Sequence record: NC_001890.1
Source: Escherichia phage Qbeta
Length of the DNA: 4,215 nucleotides
Direction: 5' to 3' (one strand)
The position numbers and the translations under genes were made by a program. Under the pieces are notes generated by a model, which saw only the letters and a list, made by a program, of their open reading frames with translations, had not been told where the DNA came from and searched no databases. Of this stretch, positions 1-4,215 are shown one piece after another (within the stretch, counting starts at the first letter, position 1; the number at the start of each line of letters is the position of its first letter).

Positions 1-55
1 GGGTTCCCCCCGTAGGGGGGTACTCTATGTAGTAGCAACCATTACTGGAGGCAAC
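1..55 (+). other. 5' untranslated leader of an ssRNA phage genome, starting with GGG and containing a 5'-proximal GC hairpin (C6-C11 pairing with G15-G20, loop GTA)
   Basis: Seen directly: the sequence starts gggttccccccgtagggggg, in which CCCCCC and GGGGGG are exact reverse complements separated by 3 nt. Leviviruses characteristically start with GGG and a stable 5' hairpin. The first long ORF starts at 56. Confidence 0.8.
47..51 (+). promoter_or_regulatory. Shine-Dalgarno-like GGAGG for the maturation gene, 4 nt upstream of ATG 56
   Basis: ggagg at 47-51 followed by caac then ATG at 56-58; read directly from the sequence. Confidence 0.6.
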
Positions 56-1321
56 ATGCCACGTTTACCTAGGGCACTTCGTTTCGGACCGAATATGGAG
101 GTCTTAAGCGACTTCCAGGAACTCTGGTATCCAGAGTCCATTATCGATTCCGATGTGAAATACCCTTTGTATACCTTCAGAGGTAGCATCGGTGGATCTT
201 TCTTTGATTCTTACGGCACGAATAATATCGTCCGCGAGATTCGTAGAACGCCTCACTGTGCTACAGTACCTATAGCCAGTTCTGGCTTAAGGCCCTGTAC
301 CTCCGTTTGGTATGACCCAACCAGCTTGCTCTTCAGGATTCCTGAGATGAGGGCTGAGTGGGACAATGGCATGGGTGATGCTGGAGATATCGTCTATAAA
401 GACTTTCTCTTCAGCACCCCGGCACCTAAAGAGTTCGATTTCTCGAATTCCTTAGCGCCACGCTACAGTAATGCCTTCTCCGCTTTTAATGCCAAATATG
501 GCGTTATCATCGGTGAAGGGCACGAAACACTTAAGTATTTCGCGCTGTTACTTCGCAGGCTACATAAAGCAGTCCGTGCCGTTCGGCACGGAGATTTACG
601 TGGTCTCCGGAAAATCCTCGACTCTTATAATAAGGGTCGTTGGAAGCCTGCTACTGCTGGTAATCTCTGGCTCGAGTTTAGGTACGGTTTAACTCCGCTC
701 TTCCATGACATTAAAAGTGTTATGGATGATTGGAACCGTATTAACGACAAGATCCAGAAACTTCGCCGTTTCTCTGTTGGTCACGGTGAGGATTTCAAGC
801 TATCAATAGATGGTTTGTATCCTGGCCTAACCCACTTCAGGTTATCCGGCGAGATTACCGTCCAGCGCCGTCATCGGTGGGGTATAACCTACGCTAATCG
901 CGAAGGTTACGCCACATTCGACAACGGTTCCATTCGGCCCGTGTCCGACTGGAAGGAACTCGCTAACGCGTTTATCAACCCTGGCGAAGTTGCATGGGAA
1001 TTAACACCATACAGCTTCATCGTGGATTGGTTTATCAACGTTGGCGATATTATTGAGCAGCAGAAGCAATGGTATCAGAATATTGACATTGTCGACGGTT
1101 ACCAGCGTCGCGATATACGCATGCGTTCCGTCTCTCTTAAAGGAGTACGGAATGGCATACCTGTACGCGTTACTGGATCAGTCGAACTTGTTGATTCCTT
1201 TTACAATCGCTCTCATACTACTCGTATCCCGCAAGCCACACTAGCAATCGATACGTCCTTCTCGAGTATTAAACACGTGATGGACAGTATTTCTCTTATA
1301 ACTCAGCGCATAAAACGCTGA
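56..1321 (+). CDS. A2: Maturation (A2) protein, 421 aa; in Qbeta-type phages this is the pilus-attachment protein and also the lysis factor
   Basis: First ORF after the 5' leader, ATG at 56 with an upstream GGAGG, TGA stop at 1319-1321. The length is that expected for an allolevivirus A2 (about 420 aa). The N-terminal MPRLPRALRFG, internal blocks such as RRTPH..TVPIASSGLRP, KEFDFSNSL, NAFSAFNAKYG, KPATAGNLWLEFRYGL, and the C-terminal LITQRIKR closely match my recollection of Qbeta A2. The gene position is the canonical one. Confidence 0.95.
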   Translation: MPRLPRALRFGPNMEVLSDFQELWYPESIIDSDVKYPLYTFRGSIGGSFFDSYGTNNIVREIRRTPHCATVPIASSGLRPCTSVWYDPTSLLFRIPEMRAEWDNGMGDAGDIVYKDFLFSTPAPKEFDFSNSLAPRYSNAFSAFNAKYGVIIGEGHETLKYFALLLRRLHKAVRAVRHGDLRGLRKILDSYNKGRWKPATAGNLWLEFRYGLTPLFHDIKSVMDDWNRINDKIQKLRRFSVGHGEDFKLSIDGLYPGLTHFRLSGEITVQRRHRWGITYANREGYATFDNGSIRPVSDWKELANAFINPGEVAWELTPYSFIVDWFINVGDIIEQQKQWYQNIDIVDGYQRRDIRMRSVSLKGVRNGIPVRVTGSVELVDSFYNRSHTTRIPQATLAIDTSFSSIKHVMDSISLITQRIKR

Positions 1322-1342
1322 CCACATTGGGTCAATTCGATC

Positions 1343-1744
1343 ATGGCTAAATTACAAGCTATCACTTTAAGTGGTATTGGGAAGAACGGTGACGTTACTC
1401 TGAACCTCAACCCGCGTGGGGTAAATCCCACCAACGGTGTTGCCGCGCTTTCAGAAGCGGGTGCAGTTCCTGCATTGGAGAAGCGTGTTACAATTTCTGT
1501 ATCACAGCCTTCTCGCAATCGTAAGAACTACAAAGTTCAGGTAAAGATCCAGAACCCAACCTCTTGCACTGCAAGCGGTACTTGTGACCCTTCAGTTACT
1601 CGTTCGGCTTATGCTGACGTGACGTTCTCGTTCACGCAGTACAGCACTGATGAGGAACGTGCACTCGTACGAACAGAGCTTAAAGCCCTGTTGGCGGATC
1701 CAATGCTTATCGATGCTATCGATAACTTGAATCCGGCGTACTGA
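1343..1744 (+). CDS. cp: Major coat protein, 133 aa, ending at a leaky UGA
   Basis: ORF MAKLQAITLSGIGKNGDVTLNLNPRGVNPTNGV...QYSTDEERALVRTELKALLADPMLIDAIDNLNPAY. It is near-identical in length to the Qbeta coat protein as I recall it (MAKLETVTLGNIGKDGKQTLVLNPRGVNPTNGV...NPAY), with several recognisable blocks shared. It is the second gene in the canonical order and terminates at TGA 1742-1744 followed by A. Confidence 0.97.
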   Translation: MAKLQAITLSGIGKNGDVTLNLNPRGVNPTNGVAALSEAGAVPALEKRVTISVSQPSRNRKNYKVQVKIQNPTSCTASGTCDPSVTRSAYADVTFSFTQYSTDEERALVRTELKALLADPMLIDAIDNLNPAY

Positions 1745-2332
1745 ACTGCACTTCTTGGTGATGGCTCAGGGCCTAGCCCTGTACCGGGTCCTAATCCGGA
1801 CCCGCCACTGGAGCCGCCGCCAGGGACAGGTAGTTATACCTGTCCTTTCCGTATATGGGATCTTTCCAGCATTTATGAAGCTGCGAATAGTTCCCACTCG
1901 TGGGATATCTATAACGCTGTCGAACTCAGTCCTCGCAAATTTGACGTTACCCTTGATGACCTCTTGGGTAACACAGATTGGCGCGATTGGGACGGCAGAC
2001 TTAGGTATACCACGTTTCGCGGTAGCCGAGGTAACGGATACATTGACCTTGACGCCACTTCGTTGATGCAGGATGAATATCTTACATCTTCGAAGTATTT
2101 AGTGCGTGAGGGGAAACGTCCCGGTGCTTTCGGTTCAATTGAACGGTTTGTTTATCTTAAATCGATAAACGCATACTGTTCTCTTAGCGATATTACGGCC
2201 TACCACTCCGACGGAGTGGTAGTTGGCTTTTGGCGCGACCCGTCAAGCGGGGGAGCCATACCATTCGACTTTAGCGAGTTTGATTCGAACAAATGTCCGA
2301 TCCAAGCCGTTATTGTCGTTCCTCGTCTTTAG
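1343..2332 (+). CDS. A1: A1 read-through protein (coat plus C-terminal extension, about 329 aa), made by occasional suppression of the coat UGA at 1742-1744; a minor capsid protein needed for infectivity
   Basis: Codon-by-codon reading shows the frame stays open from the coat UGA (1742-1744) to TAG at 2330-2332, followed by an in-frame TAA at 2333-2335 (tandem stops). The 122-aa ORF 1964..2332 in the track is in the same frame (1343 and 1964 are both congruent to 2 mod 3) and is the distal part of this extension. The extension reads TALLGDGSGPSPVPGPNPDPPLEPPPGTGSYTCPF...GNGYIDLDAT...GAFGSIERFVYLKSINAYCSLSDITAYHSDGVVVGFWRDPSSGGAIPFDF...KCPIQAVIVVPRL, which matches the Qbeta A1 extension as I recall it. 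A 329-aa total equals the Qbeta A1 length. Confidence 0.92.
1742..1744 (+). other. Leaky UGA termination codon of the coat gene (programmed read-through site; context UAC-UGA-A)
   Basis: TGA at 1742-1744 followed by A at 1745 and 195 further sense codons in frame. In Qbeta the coat UGA is read as Trp at a low percentage to give A1 (established knowledge). Confidence 0.88.
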
Positions 2333-2338
2333 TAACTA

Positions 2339-2344
2339 AAGGAG
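2339..2344 (+). promoter_or_regulatory. Shine-Dalgarno AAGGAG for the replicase gene, 6 nt upstream of ATG 2351
   Basis: aaggag at 2339-2344, spacer atctgc, ATG 2351-2353; read directly from the sequence. Confidence 0.75.
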
Positions 2345-2346
2345 AT

Positions 2347-2368
2347 CTGCATGTCAAAGACACTGCAG
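2347..2368 (+). promoter_or_regulatory. Putative translational operator hairpin spanning the replicase start codon (coat-protein binding site that represses replicase translation, and likely packaging signal)
   Basis: CTGCAUGUC-AAA-GACACUGCAG folds by eye as a 5-bp lower stem (2347-2351 with 2364-2368), a single unpaired C2363, a 4-bp upper stem (2352-2355 with 2359-2362) and a 3-nt AAA loop, with the replicase AUG (2351-2353) inside the 5' arm. The Qbeta operator (AUGCAUGUCUAAGACAGCAU as I recall it) is also a 3-nt-loop hairpin with one bulge containing the replicase AUG. Confidence 0.75.
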
Positions 2369-4111
2369 TCGCGTAAGTCGCTTAGCGGAAAACTCCGCCG
2401 CGCTGCGAACACAAGAATCGTGGTTGAAGGTAACCTCGCACTGTCTATCGCGAATGATCTATTATCCGCGCTAGATGTAGAACCGTTTAATTCGGAAGAA
2501 GACTGTATAAGTCGTTCACCGAAATTCGGCATCTCACCAGATCAATTTAGGAATTCCTATCTTCGTGCTGAGATAATGTCGAAGTACGATTCTTTTAGCC
2601 TAGGTATTAATACCGAAGCCGTAGCATGGGAAAAGTTCCTAGCTGCGGAGGCTGAGTGTGCTAAGACGAATCTGAGACTCTATAGGCCTAACTACAATGA
2701 GGATTTCAATTTCTCATTGGGTGAGACATGTATTCACATGGCTCGCCGAAAAATAGTTAAGCTATTAGGAGATTCAGTTCCGTTTGAGGCTGTGTTGCGA
2801 CATTGCCGGTTTTCCGGCGGTGCCACAACAACGAATAGCCGTCTATACGGCCATCCGTCCTTCAAGTTTGCTCTTGCGCAAGAGTGTACCCCACGGGCTG
2901 TTCCATATGTGCAAGCTTTAAAGGCCTGTACAAACATGGACCTTGGTATTACCAAGGTTAGCCCTTTCAATAAAGCAGTTACTGTACCAAAGAACAGTAA
3001 AACTGATCGCTGCATCGCTATCGAGCCAGGCTGGAATATGTTTTTCCAGTTGGGCATTGGTGGCGTAATTCGCGAAAAGTTGCACTTGTGGAATATCGAC
3101 CTGAATGATCAGACGATTAACCAGGTGCGCGCATATTCAGGCAGCTGTAGCAATGAACTTGCTACAGTGGATCTCTCGAGCGCGAGTGATACTATTTCGC
3201 TTGCGCTCGTTGAGCTCCTGCTACCCCCTGCGTGGTTTAAAGTCCTTACGGACCTTAGGTCACGAAGGGGTATGTTGCCAGACGGTAGAATCATTACCTA
3301 TGAGAAAATTTCCTCAATGGGTAACGGTTTCACCTTCGAGCTCGAGTCGCTTATATTTGCAGCTCTTGCTCGGTCTTTATGCGAGTTACTGAACTTACAA
3401 CCGTCGAGTGTCACGGTCTATGGCGATGATATTATATTGCCATCAGACGCGTGCAGCTCGTTGATTGAAGTTTTCTCCTACGTAGGTTTTAGAACCAACG
3501 AGAAGAAGACCTTTTTCGACGGGCCGTTCCGAGAGTCGTGCGGAAAGCACTACTTTATGGGCGTTGACGTCACACCTTTCTACATACGCCACCGTATAGT
3601 GAGTCCCTCTGATCTCATACTGGTTTTGAACCAGATGTATCGTTGGGCCACGATTGATGGCGTATGGGATCCTAGGGTATATCCTGTATACACCAAGTAC
3701 AGACGTCTGCTGCCGGATATTCTCCGCAGAAATGTCGTACCTGATGGATATGGTGATGGTGCCCTCGTCGGATCTGTCCTTACCAGTCCTTTCGCAGAAA
3801 ATCGCGGTTGGGTTCGGCGTGTGCCGATGATAATTGACAAGAAGAAAGACCGAGTGCGTGACGAGCGTGGTTCATATCTCTATGAACTATGGTCGTTACA
3901 GCAGCTCGAATGTGACAGTGAGTTCCCGTTCAACGGGTCGCTGGTTGTTGGTACCAACGATGGAGTTTGCACTTACCGACACCGAGAGCGGGTTTCTACC
4001 GCTATCAGTGATTCGGTTGGCGCATACGACATCGTATGGATACCGTGCAGTAGTCGTGTCCTGGCTCCCTACGGGGACTTCCGGAGGCACGAAGGTTCTA
4101 TCCTAAAATAG
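2351..4111 (+). CDS. rep: RNA-dependent RNA polymerase, replicase beta subunit, 586 aa
   Basis: Longest ORF, last in the canonical order, ATG 2351 to TAG 4109-4111. It contains the catalytic YGDD motif (TVYGDDIILPSD; YGDD encoded at 3419-3430) and the other palm-domain blocks recalled from the Qbeta replicase (MSKT...LRRAANTRI, CRFSGGATTTN, PFNKAVTVPKNSKTDRCIAIEPGWNMFFQLGIGG, YEKISSMGNGFTFELESLIFA, FRESCGKHY, CSSRVLAPYG). The length is close to the Qbeta beta subunit (about 589 aa). Confidence 0.97.
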   Translation: MSKTLQSRKSLSGKLRRAANTRIVVEGNLALSIANDLLSALDVEPFNSEEDCISRSPKFGISPDQFRNSYLRAEIMSKYDSFSLGINTEAVAWEKFLAAEAECAKTNLRLYRPNYNEDFNFSLGETCIHMARRKIVKLLGDSVPFEAVLRHCRFSGGATTTNSRLYGHPSFKFALAQECTPRAVPYVQALKACTNMDLGITKVSPFNKAVTVPKNSKTDRCIAIEPGWNMFFQLGIGGVIREKLHLWNIDLNDQTINQVRAYSGSCSNELATVDLSSASDTISLALVELLLPPAWFKVLTDLRSRRGMLPDGRIITYEKISSMGNGFTFELESLIFAALARSLCELLNLQPSSVTVYGDDIILPSDACSSLIEVFSYVGFRTNEKKTFFDGPFRESCGKHYFMGVDVTPFYIRHRIVSPSDLILVLNQMYRWATIDGVWDPRVYPVYTKYRRLLPDILRRNVVPDGYGDGALVGSVLTSPFAENRGWVRRVPMIIDKKKDRVRDERGSYLYELWSLQQLECDSEFPFNGSLVVGTNDGVCTYRHRERVSTAISDSVGAYDIVWIPCSSRVLAPYGDFRRHEGSILK

Positions 4112-4215
4112 GGTAGCACCTGGGAGGGGTGCTATACGCACCCTAGGTTAGCAAACTTAAACTAACCTTCTCGAAAGAGAGAGTTGAGGGCTCTGCTTTG
4201 CCCTCACTCCTCCCA
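4112..4215 (+). other. 3' untranslated region with three predicted hairpins and a single-stranded ...CUCCUCCCA-3' tail (replicase initiation end)
   Basis: Exact inverted repeats read from the sequence: 4114-4120 tagcacc with 4128-4134 ggtgcta (7-bp stem, 7-nt loop); 4145-4151 aggttag with 4162-4168 ctaacct (7-bp stem, A-rich 10-nt loop caaacttaaa); 4185-4190 tgaggg with 4201-4206 ccctca (6-bp stem, 10-nt loop). The window ends in CCCA like leviviral genomes. Confidence 0.8.

Follow-up and report, generated by a model that had tools for sequence, protein, structure and literature searches.

A candidate fifth gene nested within the A2 maturation gene of the allolevivirus MX1

In phage Qbeta, the beta-region of the A2 maturation protein binds MurA and probably also the F pilus. 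The lysis protein L of phage MS2 is 75 residues long, and the family to which it belongs is characterized by a basic N-terminal domain, a hydrophobic domain and a Leu-Ser dipeptide. Lysis by the maturation protein is stated in reviews to be general for alloleviviruses (PMC6071253, PMC3561173). Most contacts of Qbeta A2 with MurA fall within residues 30-120, and the shortest lytic fragment consists of residues 1-180 (Cui 2017, as summarised in PMC12856241). Small single-helix lysis proteins are also found in single-stranded RNA (ssRNA) phages, an example being the 37-residue Lys of phage M, which blocks MurJ (PMC7693330, PMC10610835). Embedded single-gene lysis (sgl) genes arise de novo, and several are possible in one genome (PMC7693330; Chamakura et al. 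2020). Here we analyse a window of 4215 nucleotides, the complete genome of the allolevivirus MX1, and describe a small open reading frame (ORF) at positions 1152-1244 that lies nested within the A2 gene and is probably a gene in its own right.

We assessed the small ORFs in all alternative frames of the + strand for hydropathy, for a ribosome-binding site and for their state in relatives, and one clear outlier was found, ORF 1152-1244. An earlier note on this DNA had seen no convincing small membrane-protein ORF in it; that view is contradicted by the nested ORF, which combines an ATG start, the Shine-Dalgarno sequence AAAGGAG, the highest hydropathy of any alternative-frame 13-mer and a signature of selection. 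The encoded peptide, MAYLYALLDQSNLLIPFTIALILLVSRKPH, opens with MAYLYALLDQSN, continues into the hydrophobic core LLIPFTIALILLV and ends in the basic tail SRKPH. The core reaches 3.0 on the Kyte-Doolittle scale, the highest value for a 13-mer among all alternative-frame ORFs, and the core of MS2 L has a comparable hydropathy. AlphaFold2 run on the single sequence returns one helix spanning residues 2-25 with a predicted local distance difference test score (pLDDT) of 91, which is weak evidence as such peptides readily come out helical. The 19-residue window of the peptide includes D-Q-S-N, and its summed insertion score on the Hessa scale is unfavourable (+5.3). The peptide is absent from a collection of 15 billion proteins and matches no PHROG family, and our literature search returned no prior report of the nested ORF. 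Its ribosome-binding site falls within a predicted hairpin (Table 1). When the alignment is folded, every lineage retains the apical part of this hairpin, one pair being compensatory, and the contig L022 has an uncompensated break in the lower stem.

The nested ORF resembles the MS2 L gene and other levivirus lysis genes in being small, in the +1 frame, located within a core gene and predicted to encode a hydrophobic helix. As with MS2 L, it would probably be translated only when ribosomes open the local RNA structure. It differs from L in its location, which is inside the maturation gene instead of across the coat/replicase junction, and in its length of 30 residues as opposed to 75. No ORF of MX1 runs across the coat end and replicase start as L does, and the nested peptide has no basic N-terminus or Leu-Ser dipeptide in the arrangement typical of L. 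With phage M Lys and the embedded sgl genes it shares the size class, the single predicted helix, the embedded out-of-frame site and a clade-restricted spread that suggests a recent de novo origin. Unlike the embedded sgl genes, it is as yet a candidate, has no PHROG match and is found in a genus believed to need none. The comparison with Qbeta itself gives a further difference, in that the A2 gene of MX1 bears a selected nested ORF whereas that of Qbeta does not. To our knowledge, ORFs of this kind in ssRNA phages have no known role other than single-gene lysis. The nested ORF, unreported as far as we found, probably adds another case to the class of small embedded genes known from ssRNA phages, and does so in a genus thought to be without any.

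The evidence for selection comes from the MX1/M11 clade, represented by 15 genomes or fragments that share 84-96% mutual identity and fall into about seven sublineages. These are MX1 and M11, JGI metatranscriptome contigs (L013-L017, L020, L021 and L027), an ENA contig (L023) and Logan contigs (L022, L024, L025 and L026). A protein-pattern search of IMG/VR yielded no additional clade relatives, nor did scans of JGI metagenomes and IMG/VR with a clade-specific 32-mer. In the alignment of MX1 and M11 with the JGI members of the clade, the longest invariant run of the whole genome covers the 94 nucleotides from 1151 to 1244, the next longest being 53 nucleotides. This run begins one nucleotide before the ATG of the nested ORF and ends with the G of its TAG. 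Synonymous divergence of A2 between MX1 and M11 or the JGI clade is 0.24-1.4 in the flanks and 0 in the tract. Between MX1 and L022, it is 0.08 in the tract, where the ratio of nonsynonymous to synonymous divergence (dN/dS) of A2 is 1.3.

Codon counts separate the demands of the two frames. Among 13 sequences (the clade set without L024 and L025), silent variation in A2 affects none of the 25 codons in the tract as opposed to 32 of the 73 codons in the flanks (Fisher p=1.1e-5). Codons at which the A2 amino acid varies number 6/25 in the tract and 13/73 in the flanks. Residues of A2 are therefore free to vary in the tract while the third positions of its codons, which are the second positions of the nested ORF, are frozen.

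The substitutions that do occur point in the same direction. All five isolated substitutions found in 1170-1244 (in L022/L026 and L023) are silent in the nested ORF (CAG>CAA, TTG>CTG, ATT>ATA, GCT>GCA and ACA>ACG), and every one of them alters A2 (V>I, L>P, S>T, S>T and N>D). As 26% of possible changes leave the nested peptide unaltered, all five would be silent there by chance with a probability of about 0.001. We also scanned the genome in windows of 25 codons using the clade sequences other than L024-L027. Out of about 2,760 alternative-frame windows, with a mean of 12.5 amino-acid-variable codons, 1170-1244 is the sole window with zero. Upstream of it, codons 5 and 6 of the nested ORF do vary within the clade (Y/S/L and A/H). 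Judged from these substitution patterns, the nested reading frame is under purifying selection in the MX1/M11 clade, and we consider it likely that the ORF is a selected and translated gene.

Outside the clade, the picture is different. Qbeta (L002, 1154-1246) has an ORF with an ATG and a stop codon at the matching positions, and its product, MGGLLTFLLACLLSIYFTADSIRAIFRSLH, is hydrophobic. Within the Qbeta lineage, however, 17 of the 31 codons of this ORF are amino-acid-variable, with changes including Leu>Arg and Leu>Pro, and the stop is lost in five of eight strains. The homologous 94 nucleotides contain 27 variable columns in that lineage and are among its more variable stretches, the overall variability being equal (17%). 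Because this homologous stretch varies in Qbeta, A2 does not account for the constraint on the 94 nucleotides, which is confined to the MX1/M11 clade. By the same sequence comparison, the nested gene is specific to the clade, and the ORF of Qbeta resembles a precursor not under selection, possibly a proto-gene.

We then consider A2 itself. The earlier note had argued that the likeness of this A2 to that of Qbeta predicts the same mode of lysis, and the argument stands as far as orthology is concerned. MX1 A2 occupies the equal genome position and is a full-length orthologue of Qbeta A2 (421 and 420 residues, with a single one-residue indel). It belongs to the Phage_mat-A family (PF03863) and includes the N-terminal beta-region specific to A2. 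Its residues 1-421 align with residues 1-420 of the Qbeta A2 structures 5VLZ/5VM7/7LHD (E=5.5e-188) and 5MNT (E=2e-187). Identity by tblastn is 64% to Qbeta A2, 91% to M11 A2 and 41-43% to the proteins of the group IV phages SP and FI. The MX1 protein ends in ...LITQRIKR and the Qbeta protein in ...LLTQRVKR, so that T, Q and R are kept. In Qbeta A2, truncations (of the region internal to Arg417) and the changes Q416P and T415I abolish or reduce lysis (PMC12856241).

The argument is weaker for the part of A2 that contacts MurA, and its premise that no small ORF is present is contradicted by the nested ORF. Identity between MX1 and Qbeta A2 is 62% over residues 1-29, 48% over 30-120, 73% over 121-180 and 68% over 181-420. 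The likeness is thus weakest in the region bearing the mechanism, since residues 30-120 hold the MurA contacts and are only 48% identical. Within the MX1 clade, the nonsynonymous divergence (dN) of A2 143-418 is 0.07-0.19, two to four times the 0.007-0.06 of the remaining A2. Purifying selection still acts on the MurA-contact region, for which dN/dS stands at 0.09-0.2 within the MX1 clade, compared with 0.12 within the Qbeta lineage. An AlphaFold model of A2 built from a 10-sequence alignment had a pLDDT of 47 and was not used.

The experimental basis of lysis through A2 and MurA is Qbeta only, and the case for MX1 is made by homology. On that basis, MX1 A2 is probably a MurA inhibitor. Lysis by A2 in MX1 is a reasonable inference, already known and the textbook default for the genus; as a textbook extrapolation it adds little alone. 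The cloned maturation gene of SP has reportedly been found to lyse cells, a report on which the present case does not rest. The GenBank record of M11 already annotates the A protein as 'involved in ... bacterial lysis'. The same record (L001, AF052431) contains an ambiguous base at A2 codon 418, which gives an X in …ITQXIKR.

Our preferred reading joins two statements: A2 is the main lysis effector, acting through MurA, and the nested ORF 1152-1244 is a real, translated gene for a single-helix hydrophobic peptide. The first is the most likely assignment for A2 from homology; the two together we hold tentatively, giving the combination slightly less than even weight. By homology with Qbeta, A2, either free or virion-borne, would use its N-terminal beta-region to bind host MurA and so stop the synthesis of cell-wall precursors at its first step, causing growing cells to burst. 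Ribosomes translating A2 would open the hairpin at 1098-1179 and permit occasional initiation at position 1152. Because the nested ribosome-binding site is locked in a hairpin that A2-translating ribosomes would open, the peptide would be made at a low level alongside A2. It would probably insert in the inner membrane and may serve as an auxiliary or timing factor in lysis or have another membrane function. A role related to lysis is a tentative proposal, for which the peptide is the prime candidate, whether as a dedicated or as an auxiliary lysis gene. It is possible, though doubtful, that this unannotated gene arose de novo in the MX1/M11 clade, from an ORF unconstrained in Qbeta, and encodes a dedicated lysis or lysis-timing protein that acts alongside or instead of A2 and MurA.

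Several observations weigh against this joint reading. For A2, identity to Qbeta is only 48% in the MurA-contact region and falls to only 20% over residues 41-60; our literature search returned no report of experiments on the A2 of MX1 or M11. For the peptide, the uninterrupted hydrophobic core of 13 residues is short for a membrane span. At 30 residues, it is also smaller than the named lysis proteins that we know of. The ORF is unconserved in the Qbeta strains and absent from the group-III-like lineage L018/L019 and from group IV. C-terminally truncated A2 clones of Qbeta, which retain the homologous ORF, fail to lyse (PMC12856241). The evidence for the nested ORF rests on only about seven sublineages, and one of these departs from the pattern. 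In L024/L025 (Logan SRR32355926 and SRR32355990, covering the region homologous to window 1152-1250), four changes that are silent in A2 alter the peptide: D9V, L14S, T18M and a stop-to-Leu change that shifts the end of the ORF two codons downstream. In these contigs such changes are as frequent in the tract as in its flanks (4/25 and 11/73). This looks like either relaxed constraint or a diverged peptide.

The alternative that survives best, although we judge it rather unlikely, is that the nested peptide is the real lysis protein of the MX1/M11 clade, or one equal to A2, that arose de novo within A2, with MurA inhibition by A2 being weak, lost or redundant. Small hydrophobic out-of-frame ORFs are the usual form of lysis genes in ssRNA phages (PMC7693330, PMC3561173). 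The frame of this one is under strong purifying selection, but L024/L025 tolerates a serine at position 14, in the core, together with a shifted stop. Also in favour of this alternative, the Qbeta MurA-binding region corresponds to the least conserved part of A2 (48%); its dN/dS, however, does not exceed that of the Qbeta lineage and gives no sign that a function has been given up. The peptide is also without the basic N-terminal domain and the Leu-Ser motif of the MS2-L type. Finally, the unconstrained open ORF at the matching position in Qbeta resembles a proto-gene, but this homologous ORF is insufficient for lysis (PMC12856241).

A second alternative, which we consider unlikely, dispenses with the peptide: A2 alone would lyse the cell, 1152-1244 would remain untranslated, and the lack of variation in the tract would reflect an RNA element peculiar to the clade, for example one that binds a protein or takes part in long-range pairing, which coincides with the ORF by chance. 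Genomes of ssRNA phages are rich in functional RNA structure, and the 5' part of the tract does lie within a stable hairpin. However, the local fold leaves most of 1177-1244 unpaired, and the lower stem of the hairpin is the one broken uncompensated in L022. No Rfam family matches the tract, and its long-range complementarity to the genome, computed with RNAduplex, is no better than that of shuffled controls. Other long invariant tracts occur at 1319-1383 (the coat start), 1810-1860 and 548-600, and one lineage (L024/L025) accepts four changes, both of which would suit an RNA element. What an RNA element leaves unexplained is the three-base periodicity of the substitutions, which in three lineages all alter A2 but leave the +1 product unchanged (the chance of about 0.001 given above), and the boundary of the invariant run, which falls exactly at the stop codon. 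We favour the reading in which the nested ORF is a translated gene and A2 the main lysis effector.

The remaining alternative, lysis by a Qbeta-type 'cryptic' +1 product at the replicase start or by the 73-residue ORF 471-692, is highly improbable: cell lysis has been reported for a +1 product encoded close to the beginning of the Qbeta replicase gene (Nishihara 2004, as summarised in PMC12856241) and MX1 has a UUG at 2424, but the frame is shut after 16 codons in MX1 and meets a stop at codon 9 in the JGI clade, several Qbeta strains are without the UUG or have stops, and synonymous variation there is above average; ORF 471-692 has an ATG, a hydrophobic C-terminal end (19-residue Kyte-Doolittle 2.13) and is open in all clade genomes, but 24 of its 73 codons are amino-acid-changing, A2-silent variation across it is normal (15/67), it has no Shine-Dalgarno sequence, and stops interrupt it in Qbeta, SP and FI. 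The hydrophobic end of ORF 471-692 is a by-product of A2 coding, because it is an out-of-frame reading of the conserved A2 motif PATAGNLWLEF. In Qbeta, the start of the cryptic gene is located in GAGGTTG at 2421-2427. The proposal of Nishihara (2004) resembles ours in placing a hidden +1-frame lysis gene in an allolevivirus; it differs in the site (2424 as opposed to 1152) and in conservation, the cryptic frame being unconserved and the ORF nested in A2 conserved.

Most of the alternative-frame ORFs are plainly by-products, and other candidates were rejected. A longer version of the nested ORF starting at TTG 1041 is unconserved in the portion 5' of ATG 1152. The peptide might instead be fused to A2 by +1 frameshifting, but no slippery or 'hungry' codon is conserved (the preceding codons are CGG, CGT, CGA and AGG), and the spacing between the Shine-Dalgarno sequence and the ATG is ideal for initiation. 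The ORFs 1755/1761-2066, 3105-3392, 3654-3830 and 3834-4106 are interrupted by stops in relatives, and the amino acid varies at roughly half of their codons or more.

The junction between coat and replicase, where the L gene lies in MS2-type phages, was searched for an L-type gene. This interval is occupied by the in-frame read-through domain of A1 (PF16814, in frame to 2332). A scan of all + strand alternative-frame ORFs found no ORF of the MS2-L type at 1650-2400. The two junction ORFs, 2223-2339 (38 residues) and 2293-2376 (27 residues), are out of frame, not hydrophobic, and interrupted by stops in relatives. The statement of the earlier note that A1 fills the interval and that no L-type gene is present there is thus confirmed, as are its coordinates and gene calls, which agree with the Pfam domain matches, the coat UGA and the read-through to 2332.

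A four-gene model genome of 4.2 kb, whose sequence dates from the 1990s, thus seems to contain a fifth gene, one with the form of an RNA-phage lysis gene. If the nested ORF is a gene, the rule that alloleviviruses lyse with A2 only would need qualifying. Should the peptide be a dedicated lysis protein, the rule that these phages have no separate lysis gene would be overturned, and a very small new 'protein antibiotic' would be added; if it has a cellular target, a peptide of 30 residues would attract interest as a minimal protein antibiotic. There would also be a practical consequence. Expression of 56-1321 alone cannot separate A2 from the peptide, because the nested ORF lies inside 56-1321, and studies of MurA inhibition that express the A2 gene of MX1 or M11 would be confounded unless the nested ORF is silently removed. 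Two single-base changes, checked on the sequence, would remove it: T1153C converts the ATG of the nested ORF to ACG and retains the A2 Asn, and T1171A converts TTA to TAA and retains the A2 Val. Taken as a pair, the selected ORF in MX1/M11 and the drifting open ORF in Qbeta would further make a clear case, found in nature, of a gene born de novo within another.

Table 1. Positions of the genes, signals and ORFs discussed in the text, numbered along the MX1 window
Feature	Position	Strand	Remarks
Nested small ORF	1152..1244	+	+1 frame relative to A2; ATG at 1152, TAG at 1242-1244; 30 residues, MAYLYALLDQSNLLIPFTIALILLVSRKPH
Shine-Dalgarno AAAGGAG of nested ORF	1139..1145	+	6 nucleotides 5' of the ATG; identical in 15/15 clade sequences
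Predicted hairpin	1098..1179	+	Tip pairs CUCU 1134-1137 with GGAG 1142-1145 of the nested Shine-Dalgarno
A2 Shine-Dalgarno GGAGG	47..51	+	4 nucleotides 5' of ATG 56; read from the sequence
A2 maturation protein gene	56..1321	+	421 residues; PF03863 E=1.6e-225; Qbeta A2 orthologue; candidate MurA-inhibiting lysis protein by homology
A2 residues 30-121	143..418	+	Counterpart of Qbeta 30-120; most diverged part of A2; 48% identity
A2 residues 1-181	56..598	+	Counterpart of the shortest lytic Qbeta fragment 1-180; 59% identity
Coat gene	1343..1744	+	PF01819; ends in leaky UGA 1742-1744
A1 read-through extension	1745..2332	+	In frame after the UGA; Read-through domain PF16814 E=1.8e-131
Replicase beta-subunit gene	2351..4111	+	PF03431
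Counterpart of Qbeta 'cryptic lysis gene'	2424..2474	+	MX1 GUGGUUG, Qbeta GAGGUUG; TAG 2472-2474; unconserved
ORF 471-692	471..692	+	73 residues in an alternative frame; judged a by-product of A2 coding

The genome contains four cistrons in a single shared reading frame and is a known, annotated genome: the A2 protein of the window is an exact match to AAC14698.1 / NP_046749.1 / UniProt O64306, which is that of phage MX1. At the nucleotide level, MX1 shares 88.8% identity with M11 and about 75% with Qbeta strains. NCBI files the MX1 proteins under 'Escherichia phage Qbeta', so that the sequences given in RefSeq for 'Qbeta' (NP_046749-51) are those of MX1. Some of the NCBI names given to MX1 proteins are odd, A2 being called 'head maturation protease' and the coat and A1 proteins 'minor head protein'. 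The starts of A2, coat and replicase in MX1 (56, 1343 and 2351) share one frame, whereas in Qbeta the frame of A2 (61) differs from that of coat and replicase (1344 and 2352). The 3' end of MX1 (4201-4215) carries the allolevivirus signature TCCTCCCA, as described in PMC6071253. Among the clade contigs, the 5307-nucleotide JGI contig L014 has an additional 1.1 kb (1-1135) 5' of the phage end, with a 344-residue ORF and no blastn similarity to the phage; this sequence could be a chimeric assembly or something else.

The clade alignment contains further invariant stretches. The segment 1319-1383 (TGACCACATTGGGTCAATTMGATCATGGCTAAATTACAAGCTATCACTTTAAGTGGTATTGGGA), which runs from the stop codon of A2 past the start of the coat gene, hardly varies, even in the contigs L022 and L026 with their 84% identity, and is probably the coat ribosome-binding site or the replicase S-site region. 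In the alignment of MX1, M11 and the JGI contigs, additional invariant runs are found at 548-600 (53 nucleotides), 1810-1860 (51 nucleotides) and 2687-2725 (39 nucleotides), the second of these lying about 65 nucleotides 3' of the leaky UGA. No conserved alternative-frame ORF coincides with any of the three, and they are probably RNA elements.

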